Source: a virus. Taken from it: a stretch of DNA of 64,000 nucleotides. Within the stretch, counting starts at the first letter, position 1, and each line of letters begins with the position of its first letter. Both the position numbers and the translations under genes were made by a program. Below the pieces are notes generated by a model. The model saw nothing but the letters and a program-made list of their open reading frames with translations. It made no database searches and was not told where the DNA came from. Location of the stretch: the IMG/VR virus record IMGVR_UViG_3300034159_000059; one strand, given 5' to 3'. Positions 28,590-62,906 of the stretch are shown here, piece by piece.

Positions 28590-28718
28590 CTACTCCTTGT
28601 AGAGAAGAGTGAACTTGCTGCTGCTGGTGTCGAAGACGAGAGAGACGAAGACGACGGAGTGCGCGTTGAGAAACGTGACAGCTTCCGTCATGGTCCGGAA
28701 GTACTGGGTCTTATACAT
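28590..28718 (-). CDS. 42-aa hypothetical protein (MYKTQYFRTMTEAVTFLNAHSVVFVSLVFDTSSSKFTLLYKE)
   Basis: AGGAGGA RBS 4-5 nt upstream of the ATG; its stop overlaps the RBS of the next gene. Confidence 0.4.
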   Translation of the reverse strand: MYKTQYFRTMTEAVTFLNAHSVVFVSLVFDTSSSKFTLLYKE

Positions 28719-29193
28719 GCTTCCTCCTTCGGAAGACGTTCTTGACGGCCCTGGCTGGTCCGGTGAAGACACCCTTCCCAAACTCTTCCCCTGCCGCGCG
28801 GGCAGCAGGCCTGGTCGCCTTCTCCATCTCTCGTGAGATGGTCTTCTTGAGCATTCTCGTGCTGCTGGGGACGACGGATCCCACTGTGGCGGCCTGGAGT
28901 AGGGAGGGTAGGTATTCCTTCTCGATCCGCTTGTTCCGGAGCTTCTTCGACTCTTCAGGCGTGAGCCGGGCACGCTCGTCAGAAAGGCGCTCGTGCTTCT
29001 CTTTCTTCACAGAGCTGCTGAGGCTTGCGCCAGCACCTGCGGCTCCAAAGAGGGCCGACTTGGGAGCCTTCTCCAGAGCCTTCTTGCCTGCCTTCATGGC
29101 GCGGACCTTGAGACGAGAGACTGGGGTGAAGGTCTTAGCGATCTTCTCCAGTTCATCGAACAGACCGTCGACCAGTTGAGTCTGCATCACCAT
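28711..29193 (-). CDS. Basic hypothetical virion protein with N-terminal LFDELEKIA motif
   Basis: MVMQTQLVDGLFDELEKIAKTF…; Lys/Arg-rich. Confidence 0.5.
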   Translation of the reverse strand: MVMQTQLVDGLFDELEKIAKTFTPVSRLKVRAMKAGKKALEKAPKSALFGAAGAGASLSSSVKKEKHERLSDERARLTPEESKKLRNKRIEKEYLPSLLQAATVGSVVPSSTRMLKKTISREMEKATRPAARAAGEEFGKGVFTGPARAVKNVFRRRKHV

Positions 29194-29750
29194 TCACCGT
29201 AGAAGTTGTTCACGAAGCGGTACTCAGAATGGATGCCGCCTCCCCAAGCACTCTCGATGTTGTAGGCCACCTTGAGGCGCTGCTTCTTCTCCTCGTAGGT
29301 GTTTCGAAAGAGCTGGATCCAGCTCTGGATGAAGGGAGTCTTGTCGTTGATGCCGACCTGAATCCCTCCATCCGAGAACTGAAGATGGTTGCGTGTCTGA
29401 AGCAGACCTACTGATTCGAGCAGGCAGATGACTGTGGCCCGCACTAGAAGATGGCGCGATGGGAAGTTCCCGATGGTGTGTCTCGTGAAAGGAGGAGTGG
29501 TGTTCCAGTCATCGAGAGCATCGAGGATGGCCCAGACGATCTGTCGGTTCGAGCTCTCTTCACCCGCGATGAGCCGGTTCAGCTCTGCGTAGTCGCGGGT
29601 GAAGAGACGAACCTGGTTCACGAAGTTGTTGAGCTCCAACTCCGCATCTGGAACCTGTGCTTTCTCGATGGGCGTGAGAGAAGGAGTGGGAAGCCTGTCA
29701 CCGGCACCCATGTACCCCGCACCGCTTGGGAGCTTCTCATAGTCGTCCAT
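29187..29750 (-). CDS. Hypothetical structural (neck/head-completion region) protein
   Basis: 187-aa ORF. Confidence 0.5.
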   Translation of the reverse strand: MDDYEKLPSGAGYMGAGDRLPTPSLTPIEKAQVPDAELELNNFVNQVRLFTRDYAELNRLIAGEESSNRQIVWAILDALDDWNTTPPFTRHTIGNFPSRHLLVRATVICLLESVGLLQTRNHLQFSDGGIQVGINDKTPFIQSWIQLFRNTYEEKKQRLKVAYNIESAWGGGIHSEYRFVNNFYGEW

Positions 29751-29759
29751 CAGCGACTC

Positions 29760-30053
29760 CTACTTGCGCTTGGGCTGCTGATTCTTCTTCTCGACAGGAC
29801 CCTCGTCGCTTGTGGAGAACGTGACGAAGTCCACCGGCTGAGCTTGGTAGGTACGTGGAGGCGCAAGAACTCGGTGTTCGAGGTTCCACCAATCTGGGAG
29901 CCTCCCAAAAGCCAGGACCTTCTTGTCTGCGAGCCGCTGGTCTGCTTTTGGGATGAACTTGTCGAGCTCCGGGACTTCGATCACTCCCCCGTTCGAAGGG
30001 ATGAGCTTCTTGTGGAAGTCGAGGACGCTGTCCGTGAGGTTGAAGACCTTCAT
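29760..30053 (-). CDS. Hypothetical protein
   Basis: 97-aa ORF. Confidence 0.45.
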   Translation of the reverse strand: MKVFNLTDSVLDFHKKLIPSNGGVIEVPELDKFIPKADQRLADKKVLAFGRLPDWWNLEHRVLAPPRTYQAQPVDFVTFSTSDEGPVEKKNQQPKRK

Positions 30054-30472: not shown

Positions 30473-30479
30473 CGTCCTC

Positions 30480-30855: not shown

Positions 30856-32037
30856 TTAGAACTGGCTGACGTTCGGGTACTTCAGGCCCTGGTCGACCTT
30901 GTTGTTCACCGGGGCGAAGAGCGGGTCGCTCTCGTCCACCGGGATCTCGGCGCCGTAGCCAGTGTCGGTCAGGCCCGGGGTCACCGAAGCGGAGTAGAGC
31001 TCCAGCTTCACGATGGCGGCCACGTTGCCGATTCCGATGCCGATGTCCTCCCAGCTCTGCCAGGTGATCAGGTTCGCGATCTTGTCGATGTAGAACTTGA
31101 CCTGGTTGAGGACGTAGCTGCGGCCCAGGAACCCCGGCGCGGTGAAGCAGTAGATGTTGCCCTCGCGCAGGATCTCCGTCTTGATCGTCCGGATGTACTT
31201 CAGGCCGGTGATGTTGTCGCTCTTCCAGCCCTCGGTCGAGGTCTCTCCGGCGATCGTCATGCCGACGTCCTGGATGGTCCAGGAGCTCACCTCGTCGAAG
31301 TCGGGCTCGGTCATGAGCATCCGCTCCGCACGGAGGTGCCGGCGGTGGAGCAGCTTCTTCAGCTTGATGAAGTCGGTCTTGAGGACCGGGTAGATCGAGA
31401 AGTCGTCCGCGCCGTTGTTCAGCGAGGCCTGGAGAGCGCCTTCACCCTTCACGATCGAAGAGCTGATCACCGCGCTGGCGTTGACGTTGGTGGCGCTGAA
31501 CTTGATCGCGGCACCAAGGGTCTGCGCCTGCGCCTGGAAGGCCTGGACAGCGGCCTCGGTGAAGAGCAGGAAGGTCCTATCCTCGACGGCCTGGATGTCC
31601 TTCACCGTGTTCTCTTCGATGATCTTGGTGATGGGCATCTCGTAGGCCAGAAGCTCCTGCTCGTACTTCTCGAACTTCTCGCTGGAGATCGTGAAGAAGG
31701 GGATCTCGTAGCGGGGCGCCCGAATGAGCCGAGCCGTGGGCTGACCACGGAAGGTCATCGCCATGGCGCGCGAGTTGGGCTCGATGTCCACGATCTTCAC
31801 GAGCGTGTCGTGGTTGACCGAGCGCTGGCACTCAGACCGCTGCACCGGCTGAGGTGGGATCACCTTCTTGTGGAACGACACTTCACGCAGACGGTCTCGG
31901 ATGTAGTTCCCGCCGAACTCGGCGATCTTGTCCTTGGCCTCTTGCGTGGCGACCTTCTCGAAGAAGAGGTCGTTGAGGGCTTTCTGGGGAATCATTCTGG
32001 TCTCCTGTTTTGTCGAAAGAGTTGAAGGTCTCTTCAC
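30856..32037 (-). CDS. Putative major capsid protein
   Basis: 393-aa ORF downstream of scaffold-like acidic/coiled-coil genes; size and position fit an HK97-fold MCP; no motif-level proof. Confidence 0.5.
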   Translation of the reverse strand: MKRPSTLSTKQETRMIPQKALNDLFFEKVATQEAKDKIAEFGGNYIRDRLREVSFHKKVIPPQPVQRSECQRSVNHDTLVKIVDIEPNSRAMAMTFRGQPTARLIRAPRYEIPFFTISSEKFEKYEQELLAYEMPITKIIEENTVKDIQAVEDRTFLLFTEAAVQAFQAQAQTLGAAIKFSATNVNASAVISSSIVKGEGALQASLNNGADDFSIYPVLKTDFIKLKKLLHRRHLRAERMLMTEPDFDEVSSWTIQDVGMTIAGETSTEGWKSDNITGLKYIRTIKTEILREGNIYCFTAPGFLGRSYVLNQVKFYIDKIANLITWQSWEDIGIGIGNVAAIVKLELYSASVTPGLTDTGYGAEIPVDESDPLFAPVNNKVDQGLKYPNVSQF

Positions 32038-32983: not shown

Positions 32984-34087
32984 TTACACCGTGGTCTTGT
33001 CTGCGACGGTGGACTGCTTCTTCTTCATTGCTGCTGTCATCTTGCAGTGCCGGCACGTACCGGCATCGCTGCACGTGCAGCCCTCCTCGGCAATCTTCGC
33101 GAGGAACGCCTTTGCCACTGCTGCTGCGATCTTCACGCCTCCCTTCGAGGCGCTACGCAGGTTCTCCTGCACCTTCGAATCGTGAGCCGCGGACATGGCC
33201 GGCTCGGTGAGGACTTCGGCCAGCTCCTTCTTCCGAGGCGCCTTGGCTTCCCGCTTGGTGGCGGCCTTGGGCGCGGCGTTGGAGCTGATGAGCTGTCGTC
33301 CCGGGTTCGACGGCACTGGAGCGGTGCTGGAAAGAGTCTCTCCACCCTGCTTGTGCTCGCCACCCAGATGCGCAGCCTCAGAGATCTTCGCGAGGATGTA
33401 CTCGGCAGCTTCGGACGAGGACTTCTTCTCCTTGTTGTCCTTCTCTTCCTTCTTCTCGTCCTTCTTGCCCTTCTCATCCTTCCCGAAGCCGCCGGCCATC
33501 TTCTCGACCTCCTCCTTCAGGAGGTCGACGCCTGCCTTCTTCCGGAGGATGTCCGCCGGCTGCTTCTGATGCAGGTAGGCCGGGCTCTTCTCGTCGGTGG
33601 CGACAGCGTTGGCGGGCGCACCCTTTGCGTCCGAGGGTTTCTCGGAGCCGGTCTGCATGGGGATGTTGTGGGACTTGGACTTGTCCTTCTTGTAGGGCTG
33701 AGTGCCTCCGACCGGCCGTCCTGTCTGGAGCACTTCCCCGCCCTGATGAACCTCTTTGCCCAGCTCGACCGAGTCCGCGAGCTTCTCGGAGGCGTAGTCG
33801 AGTGCGGCAGCGAGCTTCTCGACCTCTTCCGGATCGGCAGGATCGATGACCGAAGAGCACTTCTCCTTCTCTTCCTCTTCTTCCTTGGCCGAGGGGATGT
33901 GGCCGCCGTGCTCCTTCTTCTCGTAGGCCACGAGCTTCTTCACCTTCTCCTTGTCATCGCCCTTCTTCTCTTCCTTCTCCGCAGCCGCGAGCTTCATCTT
34001 CTCACGAGCCGCCTCGATGGTCTGAGCGACCACGTCCTGGAGAGGCAGGGCCACACCGGCGAGCTTGTTCTTCATCTCCGTCTCCAT
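32984..34087 (-). CDS. Lys/Glu-rich low-complexity protein with internal ILAKI(S/A)E repeats (scaffold/internal protein candidate)
   Basis: 367 aa; …AAEYILAKISEAAHLGG… and …VAKAFLAKIAEEGC… resemble the FDELEKIA motif. Confidence 0.5.
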   Translation of the reverse strand: METEMKNKLAGVALPLQDVVAQTIEAAREKMKLAAAEKEEKKGDDKEKVKKLVAYEKKEHGGHIPSAKEEEEEKEKCSSVIDPADPEEVEKLAAALDYASEKLADSVELGKEVHQGGEVLQTGRPVGGTQPYKKDKSKSHNIPMQTGSEKPSDAKGAPANAVATDEKSPAYLHQKQPADILRKKAGVDLLKEEVEKMAGGFGKDEKGKKDEKKEEKDNKEKKSSSEAAEYILAKISEAAHLGGEHKQGGETLSSTAPVPSNPGRQLISSNAAPKAATKREAKAPRKKELAEVLTEPAMSAAHDSKVQENLRSASKGGVKIAAAVAKAFLAKIAEEGCTCSDAGTCRHCKMTAAMKKKQSTVADKTTV

Positions 34088-34546
34088 CTAGATGGCCCCC
34101 GCGGCTGTCGCGAGGGGAGGGGGTAGCGAGTTCTGTGGCGACATCTTCACCGCCGGCATGTCCATACGGGGCTTCGAGTACGACGCTTGCTTCATCGAGG
34201 GGCTCAGCCTTGGGAGCGCCTTTGTAACGGTGGAGATCGTAGCGGGTTGCATGGGACCGGCTCCGGCTGCGATCTTCAAGAGCTCGTCTTCGAACCCTTT
34301 CCACATGACCAAGTCGATTGCGCTCGACTTGGTCATGTGGCCGGGGTCCGCCTTCTGCTCATAGGTGGACTTCGGCTCGTCGTACTTCTTCTTCGCAGCT
34401 TTCCGTCCTTCCACAGTGCCGTAGCCGGACGGAGTGTGTCCTGTAGCGTGAGACTGTTGAGTCGCAATGGCGAACGCAGTGCTCTTATTCATGGCCGGGT
34501 TCTTGGCCATGATGTGCTCAGCGCGGTTGTGAATCCACTGCGGCAT
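34088..34546 (-). CDS. Hypothetical protein with an internal GFEDELLKIAAGAG motif
   Basis: 152-aa ORF. Confidence 0.45.
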   Translation of the reverse strand: MPQWIHNRAEHIMAKNPAMNKSTAFAIATQQSHATGHTPSGYGTVEGRKAAKKKYDEPKSTYEQKADPGHMTKSSAIDLVMWKGFEDELLKIAAGAGPMQPATISTVTKALPRLSPSMKQASYSKPRMDMPAVKMSPQNSLPPPLATAAGAI

Positions 34547-34625: not shown

Positions 34626-35420
34626 CTACTTGCTCTCCTCAGTCTGCTCGTCCTTGAACTGGTAGCCGGCCGTCTCCAGCATCTCGGTGGCTCGCTGCTC
34701 GACCGCAGCCTCCAGCTTCGCGCGCTGCTCGTCGCTGGCGCTGACCTTCTCCTGCTCCGGCTCCTTCTGGTCGGCGGTCGGATCGATCCCGTTCGCCTTC
34801 AGGATCTCCAGAGCCCGACGCTCGGCGAGGACATCGAGTGCGCTGGCTGACGGCTCTTCCGCGGACGACTGCTTCTTCTTGCTCATGCGGCCAGCAGCGA
34901 AGCCAGCGGCGCCGGCAGCACCGGCCGAGTACTTCTTGCCATGCGCCTTGAGGTGCGCGCCGACCTTGCCGCCCACTTCCTTCGCCCCGCCCTTGATGGC
35001 CTCGAACCGGCCAGCGGTCTTCTCTTGCTCCGCAGCACCGATGTTCCGGAGCTCCTGAGCGTAGGCATGGGCCATCACGCGGCCCAGGTAGTCGGCCTCG
35101 GCGAGCTTCTCCTTCGCCTCGGAGACCTTCTCCTGCCCCTCTTCCTCTTCTTCGCCCTGAGCGGCCTTGGCAGGCTCCTCTTCCTCGGGCTCTTCGACGG
35201 CGGCCTGGTCATCGCCGTCCTCGTCAGCCAGAACCTGCTTCGCGAGCTCTTCGGCCTCTTCGTCGGACATCGCGGCCGGATCGATCTCGCCGTCAGCAGC
35301 CAGCTTCTCTGCGAGCTCGGCCTGGGCCAGCTTCTCGACGTCACCCTCGTCCTGGTTGGTGTGGTAGATCTCGGCGAGTCTCTCGTCCATCGGCATGTCT
35401 TCTTCTCCTTCAGCTTTCAA
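34626..35420 (-). CDS. Highly acidic protein (scaffold-like)
   Basis: 264 aa; runs of E/D (EEPEEEEPAKAAQGEEEEEGQEK). Confidence 0.5.
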   Translation of the reverse strand: MKAEGEEDMPMDERLAEIYHTNQDEGDVEKLAQAELAEKLAADGEIDPAAMSDEEAEELAKQVLADEDGDDQAAVEEPEEEEPAKAAQGEEEEEGQEKVSEAKEKLAEADYLGRVMAHAYAQELRNIGAAEQEKTAGRFEAIKGGAKEVGGKVGAHLKAHGKKYSAGAAGAAGFAAGRMSKKKQSSAEEPSASALDVLAERRALEILKANGIDPTADQKEPEQEKVSASDEQRAKLEAAVEQRATEMLETAGYQFKDEQTEESK

Positions 35421-35449: not shown

Positions 35450-37177
35450 CTAGGCCGCGTGTGTGGTCTCCCGAAAGAGATCCGCATGTTCGAAAACGGC
35501 CGCACCAGCGACCGCGTCACTGCACAACAGGCTTCGATCTTGAAGATGAGCGCCCAATAGATACCGCATCGAGTCGGGAGTGAGGATCTCGGCGTTGGCT
35601 TTCTTCAGGAACATGGTGCTGAGGCCTTCTCCAAGAACCGCTTCTCTCAACTTCGGGTCACTCTCTACTGCATCCACTACCTGCGAAATCTTCTTCAAGA
35701 AGGAGCGCCGATATCCGTTGTACGCGGCGCTAACCTTGTCCAGCAAAGGATGCTCGATAGGCGCTCTGGTGGGAAGGACGTTTTTCGCCCCTCTTCCAGC
35801 AATCATGACCCGGAGCTGAAAAGGAGTCCCAAGGGCGGTACGTTCCTTGATGTACTTCTTGAGAGCGACGAAGATAGCATCCAGCGGCTCATCAGAGTCC
35901 CGACTCCCCATACCTCCGAAGTCGAAGTCGGGGACCTGTCGGAAAACCTTCCGCTCCCGAGTGAGCTGGTTGAGGAGATCGTCTTCGCCCATTCTGCGGA
36001 GCACCACATGCTGATACTCGTGGGGCTTCAGGACCATACCAGTACGAGAGATTGTCCCCAAGACGTCTTGCAGTCGCTTCTGCGCCAGGAAGTCGAGATC
36101 CTTGGGAGAGATGTCCGGTTCCTGCTTCTCCATGGCTGGCAAGGTCTTCATGCCAAAGGAGCTGGAGGGAACCTGCTTCACAATCTCGGAGAGCTTCTGT
36201 CTTGCTTCTTTCACTCCAAAGGCCGAAGCGAGCTTCTCGGTATGACAAGTGACCTGCTCTGCGCATGAAGAGCAGAGACGCCCACAAGGTCCTCGTAGAC
36301 CAGAAGCCCCTGAGCACGAAGCGGCTTTGGACAGCCCGTCAGAAGACAGGGGCACACCGCGAGAGTCGAAGAGAGAGGACTCCACCACGGTGGGTACCGC
36401 GCAAACATTGCCGAGGCAGAGTTGCGCGCCCTTCTGCGCCAGCTTCGCCATCACCTTGGCCGTCTTGTCGGCACCGATGAAGACGAAGCTGATGTCAAAG
36501 AAGCGAGGGAAGATGTTCTTGACGAAGATCTTCTGGCCGTCTGGGAGAATCCGATTTGGCCCGTAGATCCCTCGGAGTTCTTCCGGAGGACGCATGTGCT
36601 TGCAGTAGTCGTCTCGCGTCTTGGAACGATGCAAACACTCTCGGACGGAGCACTCGTCCCAAGGAACCCGACACCCCATGCTCACGTCAGGGAAGTCCCC
36701 GGACTCGATACGCGCCAGAATGCTTCCCGCACCTTGGCGTTCTGCGGCTTCTCGATCGAGCTTGATGACGAGCTCGACTCTACGCATCCTGTGATTCAGG
36801 ACGGAGAGAACTGGATTCCCGAAAGCACGAGCCGGGTCCTTGTTGGCGTGGTGCTGGAAAGCGTGAGCGTTGAGGAACGTCTGGTAGCCGTAATCCGTTC
36901 CTTTGTGAGCCAAAGACTCCCAAGGAAAGTAGTCGGCGTTGATGTTTGAACCGAAATACTCCCCAGCACCAAGGGCGTTCACTAGGACGTAGAGGTGCCT
37001 CTTCCGATCGTCCGACGTGATGGTCTGGATGTACTTGCGCAGCTCTTCCCCAGTCTCCCAATCGGAGAACGGATCTGCGCCGGCAGTCTTCTCGAAACAA
37101 CCGGCACTGCCGAAGAGTGCCTGGGCGTAGATGCCGGCGTCCGTGCGACCGAAGAAGAGTACCTGCTTCTCTTTCAC
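35450..37177 (-). CDS. Hypothetical head-morphogenesis protein (575 aa)
   Basis: Large ORF upstream of the scaffold-like genes; Cys/His cluster DVSMGCRVPWDECSVRECLH. Confidence 0.55.
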   Translation of the reverse strand: MKEKQVLFFGRTDAGIYAQALFGSAGCFEKTAGADPFSDWETGEELRKYIQTITSDDRKRHLYVLVNALGAGEYFGSNINADYFPWESLAHKGTDYGYQTFLNAHAFQHHANKDPARAFGNPVLSVLNHRMRRVELVIKLDREAAERQGAGSILARIESGDFPDVSMGCRVPWDECSVRECLHRSKTRDDYCKHMRPPEELRGIYGPNRILPDGQKIFVKNIFPRFFDISFVFIGADKTAKVMAKLAQKGAQLCLGNVCAVPTVVESSLFDSRGVPLSSDGLSKAASCSGASGLRGPCGRLCSSCAEQVTCHTEKLASAFGVKEARQKLSEIVKQVPSSSFGMKTLPAMEKQEPDISPKDLDFLAQKRLQDVLGTISRTGMVLKPHEYQHVVLRRMGEDDLLNQLTRERKVFRQVPDFDFGGMGSRDSDEPLDAIFVALKKYIKERTALGTPFQLRVMIAGRGAKNVLPTRAPIEHPLLDKVSAAYNGYRRSFLKKISQVVDAVESDPKLREAVLGEGLSTMFLKKANAEILTPDSMRYLLGAHLQDRSLLCSDAVAGAAVFEHADLFRETTHAA

Positions 37178-37189: not shown

Positions 37190-37792
37190 TTACTTCTTGG
37201 GGCCGCCGCCGGAGAGTCGGTACTGCGCATCGACCATCTTCTTCTGGCTCTCTGCCATCTCGGTAAGGATCCGGTGGTAGGACATCGGAGCCGTATCCAG
37301 AAGCTGAGAGACGGCTGCCCCAGCCGCCATCGGGTTGGCCGCAAGAGCGGGGGCCACGTCACGAAGGGACTTGTAGTGCTGACGAACGACGTCCAGATCC
37401 TTCTCGCGCAGCTCTGGGTTGGCCGCCAGCATGTTCTTCCAGTGAGTCCCTGAGCGGAGGTTCTTCCGAACCACGTTGTAGAGGTCGGCAGCGACTGCCA
37501 TCCCGAGGCCTCCTAGAACTCCGCTGGCCACACTGCTGGCAGAGTCTGCCCCGAGACGCTTCCCCCAGGAACCGAGTCGAGCGACGCGACTGGACGTGTC
37601 GAGAACCCCAGGGTTGACGGCAGCCGTCTTGGATCTTTCCGTCACCGTCTCTGTGATCTTGCGAAAGCCTTCCTGGACGTCCGGAACGAACTCCGGAGCC
37701 ACCCGTTCCAGGAGCTTCAGCTCGAAAGCCGTCTTCTCGACGACTTCCGGAGCAGCTTGTGCAGCGATCTTCATCATCTCCTGGACGTTCAT
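37190..37792 (-). CDS. Hypothetical protein
   Basis: 200-aa ORF. Confidence 0.45.
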   Translation of the reverse strand: MNVQEMMKIAAQAAPEVVEKTAFELKLLERVAPEFVPDVQEGFRKITETVTERSKTAAVNPGVLDTSSRVARLGSWGKRLGADSASSVASGVLGGLGMAVAADLYNVVRKNLRSGTHWKNMLAANPELREKDLDVVRQHYKSLRDVAPALAANPMAAGAAVSQLLDTAPMSYHRILTEMAESQKKMVDAQYRLSGGGPKK

Positions 37793-44186: not shown

Positions 44187-44657
44187 TCATTCTCCGCCGA
44201 GACTCTTGTGGAGAGCAGTGGCGGCTCTGATAGCCAAGTCAGACCAGAACTGCTTCCCACCGAAGCCTGCGACTTTGACGAAGTAGGCTCCCATGTCCCG
44301 ATCATCCTCGACATCGAGCCCTTCGCCTCCAAAGACGTCCGTCATGGCCTTCTGGAGCTCATCCTTGAAGCCTTTGGGGAAGGCGGGGCGCGGTACGCCT
44401 GCGCTGTCTGCTGCATGAAGACCCCAGGGCCAGAAGTGGAAGATGATGTCCCCACTCCGCTTCGCGAACTCCGCCTCGAAGTGTCCGGGGCTACGGATCT
44501 CCCGGAACTGAATGGGCTCTACTTGCTTGTTTCCGAAGGATGTCTCCTTGGTGATGACGGGAAACCCTTCGCCCTTCGCCTGGTCGAGAACGGAGATGCG
44601 CTCCGGAGAGAGTGCAAGCTGCTTCCTCGATTGAAGTTCCTGCTCAACCCAGCTCAT
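44187..44657 (-). CDS. Hypothetical protein with a GFKDELQKAMTD motif
   Basis: 156-aa ORF. Confidence 0.5.
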   Translation of the reverse strand: MSWVEQELQSRKQLALSPERISVLDQAKGEGFPVITKETSFGNKQVEPIQFREIRSPGHFEAEFAKRSGDIIFHFWPWGLHAADSAGVPRPAFPKGFKDELQKAMTDVFGGEGLDVEDDRDMGAYFVKVAGFGGKQFWSDLAIRAATALHKSLGGE

Positions 44658-45553
44658 GAGAAACCCCCGTCATCCTTTGGGTGGTACCCCTTCTTGTCGA
44701 CCTCGATGTACTTCTTTCCACGAACCTTCGCCTCGGCGTGGGTTGCTGCGTACCTCGGAGCGTCTTGGCTGGAAGGATGGCCTACCCACACGTCTTTCAC
44801 TGGCCCCTTCCCTTTGAAACCGCCCTGGCTCTTGTAGAACTTCTCCACTTCTTTCACGCGCTGCCGGGCCTGCATGTGAGGATGCTGAGACAGCTTCTTC
44901 CCTACCCCAGCCGCTGTAGCGAGCGCCAGTCCTCCGGCGACAATCTTCTTCCTGTGCTTGTGCCAGAGGGAGTCACTGGGACGCTCCCAGTCGTCGTTCT
45001 TTGCCGAGGTCTTCTCAACCGACTTGGTTTCGTAGATAGGTCTCTGGCGTTTCAGCTCGTCGGCTTTCTGCCAGACCTTCTGCTTCGTCGCCTTGGGCTG
45101 CTTCAAGACTTCGGCGGCGTCGTTGAACTTGTGATGACGCGCCGCTTCTTGAAGAGTCGAGGAGTCTCTCCCAACTCGGCGCATCATGTGGCCGCCCGAA
45201 GCTCCTACGAGCGCGCCGAACAACGCTCCCCGCTTGGCGCCCTTCTTCCGCTCATCAGGCTTGGCGGCCATGGCGCCTCCCACCGCTCCTGGGATGGCGC
45301 CTACGACCGCATGCGCCGACGTCGGCCCCACCCAGGCTGGGATCTTCGGCATCTTCACAGCGGACAGTTTCTTGAAGAACGTCCGTGTCTCCGCCCTGGC
45401 TTGCTTCTCGAACTGGATCTTCCCGAGCTCATCGAAGAAGCCATTCCACATGGCTTGCTTCTCCATCGTAGAGAGGTCTCTGGAATGGAAGGTTCCTCGG
45501 GCGATCGAGGCTTCCTTTGACTTCACCATCGCAAGGTAGGTTCGGGAGTTCAT
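44654..45553 (-). CDS. Gly/Ala/Lys-rich hypothetical virion protein with an NGFFDELGKIQ motif
   Basis: 299-aa ORF. Confidence 0.5.
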   Translation of the reverse strand: MNSRTYLAMVKSKEASIARGTFHSRDLSTMEKQAMWNGFFDELGKIQFEKQARAETRTFFKKLSAVKMPKIPAWVGPTSAHAVVGAIPGAVGGAMAAKPDERKKGAKRGALFGALVGASGGHMMRRVGRDSSTLQEAARHHKFNDAAEVLKQPKATKQKVWQKADELKRQRPIYETKSVEKTSAKNDDWERPSDSLWHKHRKKIVAGGLALATAAGVGKKLSQHPHMQARQRVKEVEKFYKSQGGFKGKGPVKDVWVGHPSSQDAPRYAATHAEAKVRGKKYIEVDKKGYHPKDDGGFS

Positions 45554-53000: not shown

Positions 53001-56000
53001 AGAGAAGAGACGGGATGGGGCCCTTGTTCTGCTTGTCTCCGACAAAGAGCGGATTCGGCACCGGCTCATGGAGCTTGATGTAGCTCCACTTCTCGCCGCG
53101 GGACCCGACGATAGCAGGATCGAACAGACCGCCCTTCTCAGGCTTGAAACCCTTGGAGGTGAAGAGCAGAGGTTTGCGGATCTCGTTCTTACCGTTGTCA
53201 GCGATCTTCAGGACCTCGCGATCCGTCATAGGCACCAGCCGCATCGAGGTGCCTTCCTTGCGAACATCAACGCCGAGGCCGCGAAGCAGTCCTTCGAATT
53301 TGGTGTATGCGAAGGGGATCTTCGGAGGAGGCGGCTCTCGTCCTTCTTGAATCATCCGCCAGAAGTCGACGCCCTGCATGTCTGCTTTGTAGGTCGTCAT
53401 CTCCCGAAGGTTGTGACGCGCGTTGTGTCCGAGGAGAGAGTAGAGCTCAAGGGAGCCGAAACCCTGGCCACCAGAAGCCCCGCCCTTCACTGGCTGCATG
53501 TCCTGATCGTATTTGTACGGGCGATCGGAGAGGTCCGAACCTCCTCCGCGCACTACCAGCTTCTTCTCGACCTGGTGCTTCAGCTTGAGAAGGTGTTGAG
53601 GGCCGACGAGGATCTTGCCCAGAGGGCGTCGACGATCAGATGGGTCGAAGACTTCCTCTTCGTCAGACAAGCCATGCTTCGCAAGCTCGTCCACCACCTG
53701 CTTGCGATAGTCGTGTCCTGATCCAGCGAAGTTGTTCACGAAGAAGGGGGAGCCGGTCTTCTCTGCCACTTTACCGGCAGCAGTCTCCAAGACCTGCCCG
53801 ATGTTCATACGAGTAGGCACGCCTGATGGGTTCAGGAGCACATCAAGAGGACGGTCTGTCCCATCCGGCTTCTTCACGAAGGGCATCTCGTGGTCCGGAA
53901 GGATCTTGGTGATGATGCCCTTGTTGCCGTGGCGTCCGGAGAGCTTGTCGCCGATCTCAGCAGCTTCCTCGGTCTTCACGAAGACCTTCACGCTCTTGCC
54001 GTTCGGACTCTTCACAACTCGCGTGACGATGCCCGGGTAGTCACTGTCCCAGGTGAGAGACTTGTCCTTCCATGGCTTGATAGCCTTGTTGCCGAATCTC
54101 TCGACCATGATCTGACTCTTCACCTTGTTGGGAGTCAGACACGTAGCGAGAACCTGCCCGTTCGTTACCCTAGAGCCCTCCTTGATGACGCCATCGTCAT
54201 CCAACATGGAGAGCTTATCTTTCGAGTGGCTCGTCGCCTTGTGTGAGGCGTAGGACATCCACTTCTTCTTTGAAGTAACGTCCTCTTCCGGCGCCACATC
54301 CATCTTCAGCTTGTGCAAATGCTCGCTGGTGAGCTTCTGAGAAGCCGACTCAGAGATGACGATACCGTCTTCGAAGTTGTACCCTTTGTAGGGAATGTAG
54401 CCGACGTGGAGGTTCGTCCCTAGGGCCAGAGTGCCGTTTCGAGTGAAGTTCGAGTCGGCCACCACCTGCCCAGCCTTCACCTGGTCCCCGACCTTCACCA
54501 CCGGCTGGGAGTGCAGCATGGTAGTCGGATCATTCAGCGGGAAATGGTTGTAGAGCTGAACCTTGTGCTCAGTCTTGCCGTCGTGGACGTGGACCCCGTC
54601 CGCAGTGATCTTCGTCACCTTGCCATCCACAGGAGCTCTGTGGGCCGCGAAACTCGTGCCGATGAGCTTCTCGAAGGAGTGGGTTGGGTTGTCCGACCGC
54701 ACCAGGCTCTGCACGAGAGGGGCTTCACGGTTCTTCAGCGAGATGGCCTGTTCCATCTGCTTGTCGGCCATCGAAGCGCGGTTGCCTTGGTCGCAAGGAA
54801 GGAAGGGGATGAGGTTCGATGTGTAGCTGAACATCGCCTTCGCCGTTGGCATGAGGAAGTCTGCCTCATGGTAGGGGCGCCGACTGATGTCCCCACCAGG
54901 CAACTTCACCTTCACTTCTCTGGCGATGGGAACGTACTTGCCGTCGACCTTCTTCACCTGATCAGGCAGCACCACCATGGCCGTGTGGAACTCGGGAACA
55001 GTGACATCCTTGAGCTTCCCGGTCTTGAGATCCACGACGGTGGTGCTGAGGCTCCGACCCTCCTTGCGAACACCAGAACCGAGGTGGAGCGTGATGCCTG
55101 TACGCTCAGACTCTGGGGTATGCATCGGATCGAGGAAGGCGAAGTGAGAAGGGTTCACCCCCTGCATCTCCTCACCGACCTTCTCGGGGTCCTTGATACC
55201 ACCGTAGTCCTTGGCGATGACGGTAGTCTTGAAGTTCCCTGAGAGCATCTGTACTGGGTTCGTCTGCTCACTGCGTTCGGAGACGTTGCCGCCTTGGGTG
55301 AAGAATTCCTTGATGGGACGGTTGAAGAGATCTCCGCCCTGCATGATCTCGGAGATGACGTTCTTTCGTCCGATGGAGAGCAGGACCTTGTTCTTCACTC
55401 TCTTCTTGAAGTTGTTCTTGTCGAGCTTCTCTGGAATGAAGTCCTCGACGTGAACGACTTCCTTGAAGATCAGGCTGTCACGATCATCAGGCTCTACCTC
55501 GCGCCGCTCCAACTTGAGCAGCTTGTTCGATGCAGCGAGAAGAGCTCCTCCGGTCACCTTCTCGAACGGGTGCCCGAGTGTGGCTTTGGTGGTATCTGGG
55601 AAGAGCTGCGTATCGTCGAAGTAGCGGAAGATGTGCTCCCGCATCTCTTCCATGGACGGAGCTCGCCCGATGTCTGGCGGGGCGGTCTTCTCCCAGAACT
55701 TCCGAAGAGCTCGTTCCTCTGCCTCTGGCTGAGCGACCTTGTTGGCTTCGAAGACGGCTTTGCCCCAGGACTTCTCCATCTCGGCATCGTCTACTCCCAT
55801 CACCTTGAGAAGGGGGTATGCTGGGATCTTCGCATCCCCCGACTTGGTCTTGAAGTTGATGAGACTCTTCTTGCGATCGAGGAGTAGGTCGAAGTTCTTC
55901 GACCCGCCCTTGCGCAAGTTGAATTCAGAAACCAGGTCTCCGTTGCGCTTCACGCGCGTGTAGATGCCGGACTTGAGGCGAAGAAGGTGGTCGACTTGAT

Positions 56001-56325
56001 ACTCACCCCCGTCCACGATGAACGAGTAGCGAGAGGTGAGCTTGGGGACCCGAGCGAGTTGGATGGTCGACTTGGAGATGGGCTTGCCCGTGATGTTGTC
56101 GATCAGCTCCATCTCCGCCCGGATCGGCACACCCCAAGTCTGTTCGTTGTGCTTGGCTTGGAGCTGCGAAGCGACATCGTTCGGATCGAGAGTATCTTCC
56201 GCCCAGATTCTCTTGAGCGACAGAGTTCTCTGACTCGTCTGGATGGGGAAGATGCTGGAAATCTGCTGGATGACGCCATTGGTGAGGGTCGTCATCTTGT
56301 CGGCGGTCTTAGGCTCACCGGCCAC
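50014..56325 (-). CDS. rpoBC: Single-polypeptide bacterial-type multisubunit RNA polymerase: beta (RpoB-like) fused to beta' (RpoC-like), 2103 aa
   Basis: Beta signatures [12 protein letters not shown] and [22 protein letters not shown]…[17 protein letters not shown]; beta' catalytic motif [24 protein letters not shown]; the beta' N-terminal Zn-finger region appears absent; GTG start with GGAG RBS (alternative ATG at 56295). Confidence 0.9.
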   Translation of the reverse strand: [2103 protein letters not shown]

Positions 56326-58262: not shown

Positions 58263-60368
58263 CTAGACGCCCGTCGAGGATGCCCGGCGAGTTGGGCGCT
58301 GCGTCGGTTGCGGAGTCTTGGCGTCGAGAGGGCTGGGTCCTCTGTTCTGGTTGATGATTTGGAGTACCAAATTCCCGAGCTGCGGATTCGACATCCGCAC
58401 CTTGTTGATCTCCATCATCATCGCGCTCTCGCCTTGCTCGTCTCCGACCTTCTTGATCTGGTTCGCTGCTCTCTTTGCCAGATAGAGAAGGTTGTAGCCG
58501 CCACCCTTCTGACCAAGCTGGAGCGGGCTGGACGCGGAGACAGGAACCCCATCCGTCGGCGCTTGCTGCGCGTTGTCTGGAGAGACCGTCGACCCTTCTG
58601 GCATTCCTGGAGCGGCTTGGGGACCTGGGACCATCTCCCCTTCCTGCCCAGACTGCTGACCTCCCATGCCCGGCATCCCAGGCATGCCTCCAGCCTGGGA
58701 TGGGTCTTGTCCCTCTCCCTGCGCGCCTGCCGGGCCGCCGGCACCTGCCTGAGCGTCGGCACCCGCTCCAGCGCCTGCCCCTTGCTGGCCACCCGCTCCC
58801 CCCGTCGCCTCCATGAGCTCCTGCTGCGCCTTTGCCTGATACCGGGTCTGGACCATCATCATCTCGCCCTGGATACCGGCTTGGGCGAGCTGCTGCTTCC
58901 GCATGACGTCGAGTTTGTGGTCCAGCTCCAGAGCCTTCCGCTCTTCCTCCACGGCGATGTCCTGGTCGACCTCGGATAGAAGCGTCTGGTCTGAGAGCTT
59001 GTCCGCCTGGTTGAGGGTGAACATGAAGTTGGAGCGCTGGAGATCGTCAGCCATCTTGAAGCGCTTCATGTGAGCCCGGACAATGGGCCACTGCATGAAG
59101 TTGGCGATTCGACGGATGACGAAGTTGTTGAGCATGTTCTCGTGGTCCTGACGGTACCCGATGAACATGTTCTCCAGCATTCGCATCGAAACGTTCGACC
59201 CCGAGTAGGTGAGGCCGCCGTAGACGAACTCTTGAGGAACGCCCATGCCGGCCACGATCTGTTTCGACCAGACGTCCATCTCTTGGTAGAGACCGAGGGC
59301 CTTCCCGTCCCCTCCAATGGACTCGTTCCCGATCGGCACAGGAAGGATGGGGAGGTAGTTGTTGTCGTACTTCCACTTGGCGATCTCTGCCTCGATACGC
59401 TGGCGCCAAGAGTTCAGGTCGAGAGTGGTGTACGGATCGCTGGTGTTTGAGCCTGCCTGGGGGAAGAGGATGCGCAGCGGGACGATGTGCTCCTGAGCGA
59501 TCGACTCCTGAGCCTTGCGAAGGATCTGGAGGTAGAAGGTGTCCTTCAGGACCGGCAGGATGAGAGGCATGCCCCAGCCGTTGTCCTTCTGGGAGATGAT
59601 GGGGCGCTTGAAGACGAAGATGTTGTCGTCGGTGAAGCGGATGTACTTGTTGCGCCGCAGAGCCTCGACGAAGATGTCAGGGACGGTGTCGAGAACGTTC
59701 TTCTTCCCCAGGATAAGATCGTTCTTGAGCTGAAGGGGGAGTTCGAAGGTGTAGATGGGGTCTGCGCCACCGAAGCCCGGGTCGATGTTGATGTACTCCG
59801 GATTCCACCGCATCAGGCGGATGCGCCGCAAATCTCGGTCGTACCAGTCCAAGACAGCAGCAGGACCCTCCCTCCCGCACTTGTCACAAGAGATGATGTA
59901 CTCCAAGTTACGCCACTTGTAGTGGATCTTGGAGGCCTTCTCCTTATGCTTGCAGCTCTTGCAGATGAGGTACTTGGTGAAGGGGAAGTGGATGGTGACG
60001 GCGCAAATGCCGTAGGTGTAGTAGTCGAGCCCAACCTCGATCTGGAATGCTCGGTACCGAAGATGCTGACCAAGCAGGATCTCCCACTTCTCACGGATCC
60101 GCTGATCCTTCTCGTCGATGACGATCTCGGTGACGGGGTACTCACTCATCTTGTGGATGACCACGTTGATGAGTGGGTTGACGAGATAGTAGTAGCGGCA
60201 CCACCTGAGCAGCGCCTTCATCGAAGGCGGCAGATATGTGTGCGCGATGTCGAAGAAGGGAGACGGGTAGCGAACACCACTGCGGTTCGTTCCGTCAGCG
60301 GTACGTCCGCGCTGTCCCGAGAACCGGGAAGCGCCTCCGTAACCGAGGGACAGGTTGTCGTAGCTCAT
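58263..60368 (-). CDS. Putative portal protein (701 aa) with a Gly/Ala/Gln/Pro-rich C-terminal tail
   Basis: Size and position are right for a portal; low-complexity C-terminus GAGAGADAQAGAGGPAGAQGEGQ…; no motif-level proof. Confidence 0.55.
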   Translation of the reverse strand: MSYDNLSLGYGGASRFSGQRGRTADGTNRSGVRYPSPFFDIAHTYLPPSMKALLRWCRYYYLVNPLINVVIHKMSEYPVTEIVIDEKDQRIREKWEILLGQHLRYRAFQIEVGLDYYTYGICAVTIHFPFTKYLICKSCKHKEKASKIHYKWRNLEYIISCDKCGREGPAAVLDWYDRDLRRIRLMRWNPEYINIDPGFGGADPIYTFELPLQLKNDLILGKKNVLDTVPDIFVEALRRNKYIRFTDDNIFVFKRPIISQKDNGWGMPLILPVLKDTFYLQILRKAQESIAQEHIVPLRILFPQAGSNTSDPYTTLDLNSWRQRIEAEIAKWKYDNNYLPILPVPIGNESIGGDGKALGLYQEMDVWSKQIVAGMGVPQEFVYGGLTYSGSNVSMRMLENMFIGYRQDHENMLNNFVIRRIANFMQWPIVRAHMKRFKMADDLQRSNFMFTLNQADKLSDQTLLSEVDQDIAVEEERKALELDHKLDVMRKQQLAQAGIQGEMMMVQTRYQAKAQQELMEATGGAGGQQGAGAGAGADAQAGAGGPAGAQGEGQDPSQAGGMPGMPGMGGQQSGQEGEMVPGPQAAPGMPEGSTVSPDNAQQAPTDGVPVSASSPLQLGQKGGGYNLLYLAKRAANQIKKVGDEQGESAMMMEINKVRMSNPQLGNLVLQIINQNRGPSPLDAKTPQPTQRPTRRASSTGV

Positions 60369-60374: not shown

Positions 60375-61106
60375 TTACCTCTGGCCCTGGAGCGGAACAG
60401 CAGGAATCGTTTTACGTCCCCTCATGCGATCTGCTGCTGCTCCGGCAAGGTCCCCGAGCTTCCCTCCGATCAGAGAAGCTGAGACACCTCCGGCGAAGCC
60501 GAACGGGGCTCCGATGATGCCACCAGCCTGATCCCCTACAAGCTTGGCCGCTCTGCGAAGTCGGCTATGCCCTTGCCCCGAAGGATCTTGGCTCTTCATC
60601 ACATCACGAGCCCCGGTCGCTAGACCGTAGCCCATAAGTGCTTTCCACCCAAAACCCAGAGGCTTCCCTCCTGGACGGAAAGTGGCCTGCATCCCTTGCT
60701 GGAAGCTCTTTTGAGGGGTAAGGAAAGCGGCGGCGGCTTGTCCCATCTGACCAGCAGCGGTGGCTCCATAACTGGCAGCCCCTTGAGCTCCTCGCTGGGC
60801 CACGTTGCCGATGTAGCCGCCTACATCGCGCAAAAAAGAGATCTTCTTCAGGCCTTCCCGCGCCTTCTTCTTGTTGGCCTTCCCCCAAGACCGAAGCTCC
60901 AATCTCTTCGAAAGCTTTGGAGTGACGCTCTTCGCAGCCTTGCGCCCTACAGCATGTGCGTTGACACGGTTGTGCAGGTACGTCTGCGCGTCCCGGGACA
61001 GGTTCGTCCCTCGTATCTGAAGCATCTTCTTGGAGATGCCGGAAATCTTCTCTAGCTCATCAAGGAACGCAGGGAGGGAGTCTCTGATCACGTGGCCCCC
61101 AGCCAA
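60375..61106 (-). CDS. Gly/Ala-rich hypothetical virion protein with N-terminal PAFLDELEKIS motif
   Basis: 243-aa ORF. Confidence 0.5.
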   Translation of the reverse strand: MAGGHVIRDSLPAFLDELEKISGISKKMLQIRGTNLSRDAQTYLHNRVNAHAVGRKAAKSVTPKLSKRLELRSWGKANKKKAREGLKKISFLRDVGGYIGNVAQRGAQGAASYGATAAGQMGQAAAAFLTPQKSFQQGMQATFRPGGKPLGFGWKALMGYGLATGARDVMKSQDPSGQGHSRLRRAAKLVGDQAGGIIGAPFGFAGGVSASLIGGKLGDLAGAAADRMRGRKTIPAVPLQGQR

Positions 61107-62026
61107 CTCTTCAGAGTCGTGAGCTGTTCGGCAAGCTGCTTGCGGCGAATGTTCATGTAGTCGCGCGCCAGAAGTAGCTTGGAGACCTGCATGTCTTCCA
61201 TACTCTCTTCGTCGGGATGGAACTCGACGAAGGGGAGCTTCTCTACTTCCTTCCAGCGCTTGACGATGGGAGTCGGGTCGAACTTGACGATGAGATCGAG
61301 GTTCTTCCCCTTACCAGCATTCACCAGCTCTTGTCTTGGCTGAAGAGAGAGGCCTTGCAACGGATGTAGGCGATCCGTGCAGTTCGAGCAGAATCCGTCA
61401 TGGAAGAGAGCAGACTCTTCGTTGCCACAATCCTGGCAGCGGTAGTGGGGCTGGGAGAGTTCGAGCTGCATGAAGTCCAGAGGAGGCGGCACGTAAAAGA
61501 CGTTCTCTTCCAGCACAGTTGCTGCCATGTAGAGACGAACCTCGTCGCTGAACTTCTCACGACGAAGGAAGTCTAGGGCATCGACTGCCCCGTACAGCTC
61601 TTCCAGAGAGAGCATCTGCATGATGCGGAAGTTCGGAAGATGGTTGCCGTTCAAGGCATGCGCCACCTTCTCGAAGATCTGCCAGCGGGTCCATGGACCG
61701 GTGGAGGAGTGCAGAGCTTGGAGTGCGCGGATCTTCTGCCAACAGATCTCCGAGACGCCGGTAGAGAACTCTTGAGAGATCTCTTCGCGAACCGTCTCAG
61801 GCTCCCACCGATACCAGTCAGACCCGAAGGCTCGTAGGAGAGAGAAGTCGAGGACGACGGGGTGGGTGTTGGGACGGATGAACAGGTTCCGAAGCGTGAC
61901 CGGTTGAGAATAGTCTTGAGTCGGAGCCACGACGCGCTCCTCCGGACTACCCTCGGTCGGAGCGGTCGGCTTGACCTCGTCCAAGGAACGAAGCTTCTCG
62001 AAAAGGGTGTCTTCAGGAGTCGGCAT
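61088..62026 (-). CDS. Hypothetical protein (312 aa; CxxC…CxxC pair)
   Basis: YRCQDCGNEESALFHDGFCSNC. Confidence 0.5.
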   Translation of the reverse strand: MPTPEDTLFEKLRSLDEVKPTAPTEGSPEERVVAPTQDYSQPVTLRNLFIRPNTHPVVLDFSLLRAFGSDWYRWEPETVREEISQEFSTGVSEICWQKIRALQALHSSTGPWTRWQIFEKVAHALNGNHLPNFRIMQMLSLEELYGAVDALDFLRREKFSDEVRLYMAATVLEENVFYVPPPLDFMQLELSQPHYRCQDCGNEESALFHDGFCSNCTDRLHPLQGLSLQPRQELVNAGKGKNLDLIVKFDPTPIVKRWKEVEKLPFVEFHPDEESMEDMQVSKLLLARDYMNIRRKQLAEQLTTLKSWLGAT

Positions 62027-62553
62027 CAGCGCTCGATGATGAAGGGCTCCGTTGCCTTCGGCAGCTCGATCGACCTCTTGGGCACTGTGTTCGACTTCGG
62101 AGTGAAGGAAGAGAGCATCGCGGCCCGTTGCGGATCTTGGTGAAGACGGACAGGCGGGTGCGGTAGAACCTTCTTCTGAGCAGCTTGGAAGGCGTGCCCC
62201 AGAGCGTCAGCCTTCATGCTCCCGACCGCCGCCCTCCCTGCCCGCGCTACTCCGCTAGGCCCGAAAGGCAGCCCCGCCTTCTTCATCTTCTTGAAGGCAG
62301 AGTGCGCAAGGTGGGCAGCCGAGGGAACGCCGAGAACACCAAGGCCTGCCAGTTCGTACTTCGCGTGCCTCTTCTCTTCGTCCGAGGCCGGGTTGTTCTT
62401 GCGGAGCTTGGCGGCGCTTGGAACGGCGAGAACGCCGAGGCCCCCAAGCTCCGCGCCGTGAGCTAGATGACCTCCGTGCTGAGCAAGGAAGCCGGAGAGG
62501 CCGGCGATCTTCTGGAACTCGTCGGCGAAGGCGTGAACGGTGGTCAAGTGCAT
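62026..62553 (-). CDS. Hypothetical basic protein with N-terminal AFADEFQKIAG motif and an internal duplication
   Basis: ELGGLGVLAVPSAAKL / ELAGLGVLGVPSAAHL repeat. Confidence 0.45.
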   Translation of the reverse strand: MHLTTVHAFADEFQKIAGLSGFLAQHGGHLAHGAELGGLGVLAVPSAAKLRKNNPASDEEKRHAKYELAGLGVLGVPSAAHLAHSAFKKMKKAGLPFGPSGVARAGRAAVGSMKADALGHAFQAAQKKVLPHPPVRLHQDPQRAAMLSSFTPKSNTVPKRSIELPKATEPFIIER

Positions 62554-62561
62554 GACGTCTC

Positions 62562-62906
62562 CTACTCTACGCTGGTAATGGCTCTCCCGTACCCTCTTCC
62601 TGCTGCTGCCACGCGATCCGCGTCGGCCGCGGCCTTGGCGCCCGACGGCTTGCGCATATTCGCCTGTAGTTTCGCGAGCATGGACGACTCTGGCGACAGC
62701 TTCTTGACTGGAGGGGACGGACGCGAGGCGCGCGATGCAGAGAGAAGGGAAGAAGACTTCCGGGGAGGGATGACGATCCCCTTGGCCGCGCGGAGGTTCT
62801 GGTGCTCCGTTACGAGCTGCTTCGCGATGGGACTTTTGAGGAGAGCGCCCGTGAAGGCGATCTTCTGGAGTTCATCGAAGAAGCCGCTGAGGGTCTGGGA
62901 GTTCAT
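62562..62906 (-). CDS. Hypothetical basic protein with N-terminal GFFDELQKIA motif
   Basis: 114-aa ORF. Confidence 0.45.
   Translation of the reverse strand: MNSQTLSGFFDELQKIAFTGALLKSPIAKQLVTEHQNLRAAKGIVIPPRKSSSLLSASRASRPSPPVKKLSPESSMLAKLQANMRKPSGAKAAADADRVAAAGRGYGRAITSVE

Follow-up and report, generated by a model that had tools for sequence, protein, structure and literature searches.

In bacteriophage T4, the capsid targeting sequence (CTS) of the internal proteins IPI, IPII and IPIII suffices to bring a foreign protein into the head, shows affinity for the scaffolding core, and is removed by the protease gp21 (PMC9026906). In the Dar system of phage P1, the large effector DarB, a helicase/methylase of the SNF2 type, is directed to the head by an N-terminal signal of no more than 30 residues, which can also take a reporter there (PMC9024508). 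We studied a short peptide motif, F-x-D-E-L-x-K-I-A, shared by a family of proteins encoded in the IMG/VR record IMGVR_UViG_3300034159_000059, a 64,000-nucleotide stretch (hereafter the window) from an uncultivated, ~200-kb contractile-tailed phage. To our knowledge, the only capsid-targeting signals known from experiment are the 10-residue leader of the three T4 internal proteins and the signal of P1 DarB, for which there is no consensus. The motif studied here differs from what we take to be the T4 leader. We consider it probable, at roughly 0.6, that it forms the core of a propeptide that targets its carriers to the prohead core and is processed there, as a functional analogue of the T4 CTS; the relation that we claim is one of analogy, not of homology.

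The virion module of the window consists of minus-strand genes, from ~17 kb to 64 kb. A six-frame scan with the expression [FL].DE[LFV].K[IA] returned seven matches, against 0.013 expected from residue shuffles and 0.012 expected analytically, all of them on the minus strand and inside the head-module open reading frames (ORFs) named by an earlier, sequence-only reading of this DNA. That reading had proposed that at least eight window proteins share the motif, which proved correct, with seven strict copies where it had placed them and an eighth, decayed copy in the gene at 21193. It had also proposed a search in related phages, and we surveyed about 190 related loci overall, building a profile hidden Markov model (HMM) from 103 unique instances in these relatives. 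Across 104 related loci, a slightly wider expression gave 105 coding-strand matches versus six on the opposite strand, and the HMM, at 8 bits or more, gave 125 coding-strand matches versus none in non-coding frames. The seven window copies score 11-28 bits, whereas the best match in a non-coding frame reaches at most 5 bits. The peptide strings DELEKIA, DELQKIA, FDELEKI and FDELQKI had no match in the full-text literature.

The aligned instances define a leader of ~17 residues, M(-8)-x-L-[AVI]-[MT]-[LMVW]-x-[AGS]-F(0)-x-D-E-L-[EQ]-K-I-[ASG]. Position -8 is occupied by Met in 41% of instances, and by a start-capable M, L or V in 67%; a start codon lies exactly at -8 from the Phe in 52 of 111 unbiased unique ORFs, and sequence resembling a Shine-Dalgarno element was found upstream of 42% of the -8 starts, compared with 11% of control Met codons. 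The residue preceding the invariant Lys is Glu in 34% of tags, Gln in 25% and another residue in 41%. The spacing of the hydrophobic positions, at -3/-4, 0, +4 and +7/8, fits an amphipathic helix, and the leader is predicted to be a short, acidic, amphipathic helix.

About half of the copies are internal, or follow another small domain such as a Zn-ribbon or DUF5661. In the families of P0144, P0148, P0143 (60375-61091 homologues), P0145, P0096 and P0141, the motif is N-terminal in some members, while in others a zinc-ribbon of ~45 aa (CxxC...CxxC) or DUF5661 precedes it, and DUF5661 was additionally found within some protease-family proteins. Two to four tandem leader copies, with a basic segment after each, are present in the metagenomic proteins P0125, P0126, P0129, P0132, P0138 and P0141. 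Some of these tandem-copy proteins come from AT-rich lineages, some of their internal copies retain Met at -8, and they look like fused adjacent tagged genes or polyproteins.

Within the window, where all of the tagged genes are on the minus strand, the gene at 62562..62906 encodes a protein of 114 aa with the leader MNSQTLSGFFDELQKIA (motif at nt 62856-62885, aa 8-17; 28.4 bits); its ATG, at 62906, lies exactly 8 codons ahead of the Phe, and its body is basic and low-complexity. Next to it, 62026..62553 (175 aa; motif at nt 62503-62532; 21.1 bits) carries the leader MHLTTVHAFADEFQKIA, starts with an ATG at 62553, also at -8 codons, with AGGAG upstream, and belongs to a carrier family with 11 members in relatives. 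The body of this protein contains repeated hydrophobic AGLGVLxVPSAA segments, and in its family and in P0129 each protein has, downstream of the tag, two copies of an element (E/V)(L/A)AGLG(V/M)LA(V/A)PS(A/I)A(H/K)L; this element is possibly membrane-active. Directly upstream of the portal gene, 60375..61091 encodes a protein of 238 aa with the leader (M)IRDSLPAFLDELEKIS (nt 61041-61070; 17.5 bits). Its start is a GTG at 61091, at -8 codons and preceded by AGGAGG, and is also the start chosen in the JGI gene call P0128. In an AlphaFold2 model of this protein, residues 6-17 form a helix (at low confidence), the first half of the chain is modelled with low confidence, and the C-terminal body is helical. 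The fold of the protein had no significant match in BFVD. The gene in the same position in a distant clade keeps the peptide AF(R/E)DEL(R/L)K(E/S)A. Downstream of the capsid gene cluster, 28711..29187 encodes a very basic protein of 158 aa with the leader MQTQLVDGLFDELEKIA (nt 29137-29166; 20.1 bits), starting from an ATG at 29187, at -8 codons. For these last two genes the sequence-only reading had located the motif correctly and placed the starts upstream, at 61106 and 29193 respectively.

The remaining copies are less regularly placed. A protein of up to 299 aa encoded by 44654..45553 carries MEKQAMWNGFFDELGKIQ (nt 45413-45442; 20.3 bits), and alternative ATGs at -9 and -4 would place this motif N-terminally. 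The neighbouring gene 44187..44657 has a weaker internal copy, GFKDELQKAM (aa 96-105, nt 44343-44372; 11.3 bits). A small head-core protein of 152 aa (34088..34546) contains an internal motif, MWKGFEDELLKIA (aa 84-93, nt 34268-34297; 26.2 bits); its orthologues keep H.K(T)S..SL.(L/M)W.GF.DEL.KIA about 60 aa before the C-terminus, although the motif is N-terminal in the orthologue from locus L089 and doubled in P0127 and P0130. This ORF is in the same frame as the scaffold-like ORF that follows it, the two being separated by a single TAG at 34088-34090, directly followed by an ATG. We considered stop-codon recoding for this TAG and for ragged ORFs, and rejected it, as the stops are mixed (TGA 13, TAG 9, TAA 9) and no ORF fusion was convincing. 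The decayed copy, SCLDEVEKIA (nt 21460-21489), is in a protein with two hydrophobic segments encoded by 21193..21573, and its score of 6.9 bits is just above noise; orthologues in loci L045 and L048 have a canonical N-terminal M-x7-LFDELTKIAE. Thus, of the looser variants suggested by the sequence-only reading, LDEVEKIAED is a genuine, if decayed, relative, while YILAKISEA/AFLAKIAEE, in 32984-34087, had no HMM match and was set aside. Compared against Pfam and PHROG, the motif proteins gave no credible match, the sole one being of the 60375 gene to phrog_1277 (E 0.004, with no passing stretch).

When the motif was removed, the proteins bearing 134 copies fell into 58 BLAST clusters, with the eight window proteins in eight separate ones, and in a larger locus set 244 motif ORFs formed 73 loose families. 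The part of the carriers that follows the tag has a median isoelectric point (pI) of 10.3, with a pI above 9 in 94% compared with 40% of background ORFs, and its acidic residues are halved. The window carriers are thus otherwise unrelated, basic and low-complexity, as had been noticed from the sequence. The bodies evolve fast (the 60375 gene has seven database homologues and the protease-like gene nearby has 1345) while the motif is near-invariant, indicating that selection acts on the peptide itself. With its M(-8) offset and its 73 loose families, it is a short leader common to unrelated proteins at or near the N-terminus, as in the class of signals exemplified by the T4 CTS.

In relatives, we identified the same leader fused, through linkers of ~5 residues, to enzymes of several unrelated superfamilies: SNF2 helicases (L111, L167 and L183), a NUDIX hydrolase (L149), an InPase-type pyrophosphatase (L145; 3.6e-41) and a GNAT plus glyoxalase protein (L131). 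Weaker matches place it on P-loop kinase and protein-kinase-like proteins. The SNF2, NUDIX, InPase and GNAT folds cannot be paralogues of one another, and the leader is therefore a transferable module. SWI2/SNF2, the InPase variant PF18823, NUDIX and GNAT are among the effector domains of the polyvalent proteins of phages and conjugative elements, for which packaging in the phage head and subsequent injection have been predicted (Iyer et al. 2017, PMC5512222). Inteins with Hint and LAGLIDADG domains interrupt the tagged SNF2 helicase of L183 (2898-6770, minus strand) and the protease-like proteins P0026, P0090 and P0093.

These fusions bear directly on whether the shared peptide might be a relic of common descent, retained with no common function by paralogues whose bodies have diverged past recognition. 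The bodies of the small basic proteins do evolve so fast that ancient paralogy among them could escape detection by sequence. However, no such history could join the enzyme folds that carry the same leader, and a motif that stays near-invariant amid such divergence has the signature of purifying selection on the peptide, so that we regard this explanation as very improbable. Simple duplication of one gene, against which the sequence-only reading had already argued, is likewise contradicted by the separate clusters of the window bodies and by the enzyme fusions.

The distribution of the leader is tied to one phage clade, and to genes of its head module and of cargo type. A scan of IMG/VR for the back-translated leader with an ATG at -8 recovered 92 stretches, nearly all of them on large, high-GC contigs of the clade; the few low-GC outliers are internal AAA/Lon-like FMDEFEKIA sequences. 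Among 91 new loci selected by the pattern, 57 have homologues of the window's structural proteins (portal, protease, scaffold, major capsid protein, sheath) within short flanks. A motif-profile search of 1.84 billion representatives gave 22 matches, of which P0121 and P0142 are repeat artefacts. As this profile search yielded no cellular, host-like family, mimicry of a host protease substrate, as with Staphylococcus aureus phage 80alpha and Prp, was left unsupported.

We investigated the genes of the putative head core, which lie on the minus strand upstream of the gene for the major capsid protein (MCP) in the order 37190-37792, 35450-37177, 34626-35420, 34088-34546, 32984-34087, two small genes and MCP, an order that is syntenic in relatives. 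The candidate prohead maturation protease (35450..37177, 575 aa) has an N-terminal domain (about aa 40-235) with a fold like those of T4 gp21 and herpes assemblin, and thus belongs to the assemblin-like fold class, while at the level of sequence families it had no match in Pfam, PHROG or PDB sequences. H109, H110 and S166 are invariant in 30 sequences, and hhalign pairs S166 with gp21 S140, presumably the nucleophile, at a probability of 1%. Near its ends the protein bears half-motifs, CFEKTAGA (aa 27-34, nt 37076-37099) and MFLKKAN (aa 522-528, nt 35594-35614), conserved in 30 homologues as [FM]EK[TVQ]AGA near the N-terminus and MFxKT[AS] near the C-terminus, with a variable residue before the Lys at the C-terminal site. 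In some relatives (L048, L053 and L104, with orthologues of this protein, and also L073, L117/L078, L154/L056 and L061), an InPase domain (PF18823) is either inserted after the protease-like domain or located in very large proteins encoded between the terminase and the protease, which effectively joins an effector to a head-core protein.

The acidic head-core protein (34626..35420, 264 aa) contains an internal relative of the motif, RVMAHAYAQELRNIG (nt 35037-35066), within the alignment consensus EKVAEADYLGRVMAHAYVQELxxIEKxA. Its orthologues have SYVDELQKIG in L062/65/67/68 and AYVHELRKIAS in L094, from a distant sub-clade in which this internal relative thus persists and N-terminal tags are rare. 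The gene just upstream of the protease (37190..37792, 200 aa) begins with the short-form leader MNVQEMMKIA (nt 37763-37783), which scores 3.3 bits, below the HMM threshold, and continues with the half-motif VVEKTA (nt 37727-37744); its orthologues start with M..(E)L(M/I).(K)(V/T)A...(E)L(M/V)(Q/E)KTA. The sequence-only reading had missed this copy, that in the acidic core protein (AYAQELRNIG), and the half-motifs in the protease-like protein, the MCP and a protein of 312 aa. The scaffold-like protein (32984..34087, 367 aa), recognised by its charged, Lys/Glu-rich composition and by its gene lying immediately upstream of those for the capsid, lacks the full motif and has two half-motif-like elements, EEVEK(L/M)A (nt 33809-33829 and 33494-33514).

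The C-terminal half of the motif, as the pattern [LIMFV][EQ]K[SAIVT]A, occurs 12 times in the window, always on the coding strand, against 1.3 expected. This half-motif links the window to its cultured relatives Arash and D181, in whose head regions (Arash 118-166 kb, our locus L105; D181 128-177 kb, L197) the full motif is absent. It occurs 16 times in the D181 head region (1.0 expected) and 12 times in that of Arash (0.9 expected), a 12-16-fold enrichment in the head-morphogenesis genes of both phages, compared with one occurrence (0.8 expected) in Arash 1-50 kb. Nearly all of the Arash and D181 copies have Glu before the Lys. The homologues of the acidic core protein, Arash gp223 and D181_0278, each contain four copies of the (D/E)LEK(S/A/V)AAV type, and further copies are present in scaffold-like proteins. 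In D181, the small, very basic proteins D181_0251 and D181_0286 have half-motif leaders of 5-10 residues at the extreme N-terminus, MDNVDTLLEKIAAKSKK and MTLMEKIADAK; the leader of the window's 37190..37792 protein resembles the latter and MDNVDTLLEKIAAK, also from D181. This distribution, over protease termini, core proteins and internal-protein leaders, mirrors that of the gp21 sites of T4 (PMC9026906).

Such a pattern could be read as that of a cleavage site only, in which case the carriers would enter the prohead by other means, and the shared residues would mark where the gp21-like protease trims carriers and core proteins. The specific enrichment of the half-motif in head modules, its position near both ends of the protease, its repetition in the acidic core and scaffold-like proteins of Arash and D181, the proteins with two to four tandem tags, like polyprotein junctions, and the presence of a gp21-like fold are all as expected from this. 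It is nevertheless unlikely, as the sites of T4, phiKZ and SPN3US are three-residue logos with an obligatory Glu at P1, while here ~12 positions are constrained, the spacing to the Met is fixed and the putative P1 residue is not conserved. Enzymes of unrelated superfamilies have moreover gained the exact leader at their N-termini, which fits an address label, not a trimming site, and T4 itself combines targeting and processing in one peptide.

Whether the tagged proteins go to the head can be approached through the SNF2 helicase of L111, which aligns with Arash gp217 at 38% identity over 486 aa (E 2e-71), the alignment beginning right after the tag. In purified Arash particles, gp217 was represented by 1148 spectra and 38 unique peptides, alongside RNA polymerase subunits. 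The motif could alternatively be a signal for sorting to, or interaction with, some target that is not the capsid, such as an inner-membrane or lysis site, a phage-built compartment, a chaperone or a phage RNA polymerase hub. The Gly/Ala-rich hydrophobic segments of many carriers could be membrane-active, and the helicase, NUDIX and pyrophosphatase could equally work with the RNA polymerase in the infected cell, the virion location of the tagged proteins being a deduction. Against this, the leader is acidic and amphipathic, unlike a signal peptide, the tagged genes cluster beside those for portal, protease, scaffold, MCP and sheath, the head-core proteins contain copies of the element in their own sequences, and the helicase orthologue is abundant in Arash particles; such a destination is therefore slightly less probable even than a role in cleavage only.

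We accordingly favour T4-like targeting and processing, because of the fixed N-terminal offset, the unrelated basic carriers, the enzyme fusions, the orthology to Arash gp217 and the neighbouring gp21-like candidate. In this scheme, the leader helix would dock the carrier, during head assembly, onto an internal core made up of proteins that bear internal or half copies of the leader element, namely the scaffold (32984-34087), the small core protein (34088-34546), the acidic core protein (34626-35420) and the gp21-like protease (35450-37177). The docked cargo would consequently be enclosed when the shell closes, and would comprise small, very basic, Gly/Ala-rich proteins and, in relatives, the SNF2 helicase, NUDIX, InPase and GNAT enzymes. 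The maturation protease probably recognises the C-terminal half, Φ-[EQ]-K-[ITVS]-A, or a site from which this half derives, and cleavage there would free the cargo from the core, to exit with the DNA at infection. The proposal made by the sequence-only reading, of a capsid-targeting signal or prohead-protease site on packaged internal proteins like those of T4, is thus upheld by the computed evidence, while its suggestion of docking to the portal found no specific support.

Several observations weigh against this scheme. That the proteins of this clade are packaged and cleaved, and that the core receives them, is what we infer from their sequences. Known gp21-family proteases cut after Glu (PMC9026906), and only 34% of tags have Glu before the invariant Lys, a position that also varies at the C-terminal site of the protease, so that many tags may go uncut there. 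The 10-residue T4 peptide has separable parts for targeting and for processing, and a variant of it that cannot be cleaved is packaged all the same (PMC9026906), which would accommodate tags with Gln, Thr or Ser before the Lys. The signal is not confined to N-termini, as about half of the copies are internal or follow another domain. No tag is present on the RNA polymerase or on other proteins certain to be in the virion, and Arash gp217 is packaged without one. The Arash virion list is generous, with 116 of 252 proteins and hence low specificity, and the abundance of gp217 is therefore supportive, not conclusive; the Arash supplementary files give annotation only, with no peptide-level data for mapping cleavage.

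Compared with the described systems, the closest likeness is to the T4 CTS. Both are short N-terminal leaders common to unrelated, basic, fast-evolving proteins, which are head-internal in T4 and presumably so here; the T4 protease has its own sites near its termini, and the gp21-fold candidate here stands in a comparable gene order. The T4 leader, however, is 10 residues long, whereas that of this clade has 17, a different consensus and much stricter conservation, is internal or repeated in roughly half of its copies, and often has a putative P1 residue other than Glu. It is also found on at least 70 families, enzymes included, in a clade whose sequences show no detectable relation to those of T4, and is known so far from sequence. 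The Dar system resembles this one in that the clade has a tagged SNF2 ATPase, but the Dar N-termini have no common consensus (PMC9024508), in contrast to the single explicit consensus on all carriers here. The phages phiKZ, 201phi2-1 and SPN3US offer a further parallel, being large myoviruses that have a virion RNA polymerase, package many proteins, encode a diverged gp21-like protease (of the gp175 type), and make head and inner-body (ejection) proteins with N-terminal propeptides. Those propeptides are defined by a short (S/A/G)-x-E logo only, with no common docking peptide. The leader does not conform to that logo, because its [AGS] at -1 is followed by Phe and a variable residue, with no Glu two residues on, the invariant Glu being at +3.

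Polyvalent proteins have the same effector repertoire (SWI2/SNF2 ATPase, the PF18823 InPase variant, NUDIX and GNAT), but unite many domains in one giant polypeptide, while here separate proteins each have their own leader. The tagged enzymes are mostly single-domain, as opposed to the 2-15 effector domains per polypeptide of polyvalent proteins, with some multi-tag proteins and the InPase-protease fusions as exceptions to the arrangement of one domain with one leader. Encapsulin cargo-loading peptides are short, usually C-terminal, and bind the shell protein directly, with no protease or DNA; they too are short linear peptides on diverse enzymes that load them inside an HK97-fold shell, and their consensus differs. 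The leader is thus, by its sequence features, distinct from the T4, P1 and phiKZ systems in its long, strict and explicit consensus, its dozens of families including enzymes, its internal and tandem copies, and its occurrence in an unstudied, widespread clade.

The window additionally encodes a recognisable set of structural proteins. The portal protein (58263..60368, minus strand) matches PHROG portal families at 3e-8 and was found in 24 related loci, and it anchors the upstream cluster of tagged genes. The large terminase (40302-42188; Pfam GpA_ATPase) and the tail sheath (17109-20426) are in the same minus-strand module. The MCP (30856..32037, minus strand) matches a PHROG major head protein at 1e-6 as well as the Arash MCP, and its translation probably starts at Met15. 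Its N-terminal half-motif, LFFEKVA (nt 31948-31968), was considered as mimicry by the MCP N-arm, and is given here as a side note since LFFEK(V/I) is conserved in close MCP orthologues only. A protein of 162 aa encoded upstream of MCP had no match in PDB. Further FEK(V/T)A half-motifs are at 61661-61678, in the 312-aa protein encoded between tagged genes and conserved in its orthologues, and in the region of 57581, in a doubtful ORF of 194 aa (57087-57671).

A fused beta/beta'-like multisubunit RNA polymerase of 2103 aa (50014..56325, minus strand), identified by PHROG and RNA polymerase beta matches, is encoded as a single, untagged ORF between the portal and baseplate-like genes. It is homologous to Arash gp206 and gp216, into which the enzyme is split in that phage and which are both top-abundance particle proteins, and it is probably a packaged virion RNA polymerase. 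Outside the head genes, we identified a phage-encoded GGDEF diguanylate cyclase with a membrane-like N-terminal region (6545-7429, plus strand; Pfam 3.2e-35), and a Laminin_G_3/concanavalin-like lectin domain (10786-11679, minus strand; 4e-15) within Gly/Ala-rich, low-charge genes at 9-13.6 kb, which probably encode tail-fibre or receptor-binding proteins.

A megablast of 22 kb of the window against INPHARED (50,697 phage records) gave no nucleotide match. With the portal and capsid as queries, over 100 related loci were recovered from IMG/VR, and many of them lie on contigs of 130-210 kb; a protein identical to a window protein is present on a JGI contig of 209,442 bp. The nearest cultured relatives are Salmonella phage Arash and the Vibrio phages D181, D148 and D69, at 28-32% protein identity. 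As a related half-motif is present in the cultured Arash and D181, the idea of a capsid-targeting leader is directly testable.

We propose tentatively, at somewhat less than even odds, a broader interpretation, in which the leader would be the general, portable capsid address label of a large, globally distributed clade of ~200-kb environmental myoviruses, its receptor being the gp21-like protease or the core, with the tag as a substrate or pseudosubstrate; the injected set would then be readable from sequence, with one tag per effector in place of fused polyvalent proteins. If this is true, it would be the first sequence-readable packaging label for proteins injected by phages, and it would stand on recognisable anti-defence or early-function enzymes. 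The protein sets injected by uncultivated phages could then be listed from metagenomes, and the label would offer an engineering handle for loading proteins into large capsids. For this clade, the injected set would include DNA-coating basic proteins, membrane-active proteins, and SNF2, NUDIX, InPase, GNAT and kinase-like effectors, and its assembly would be modular, an alternative to giant polyvalent proteins.

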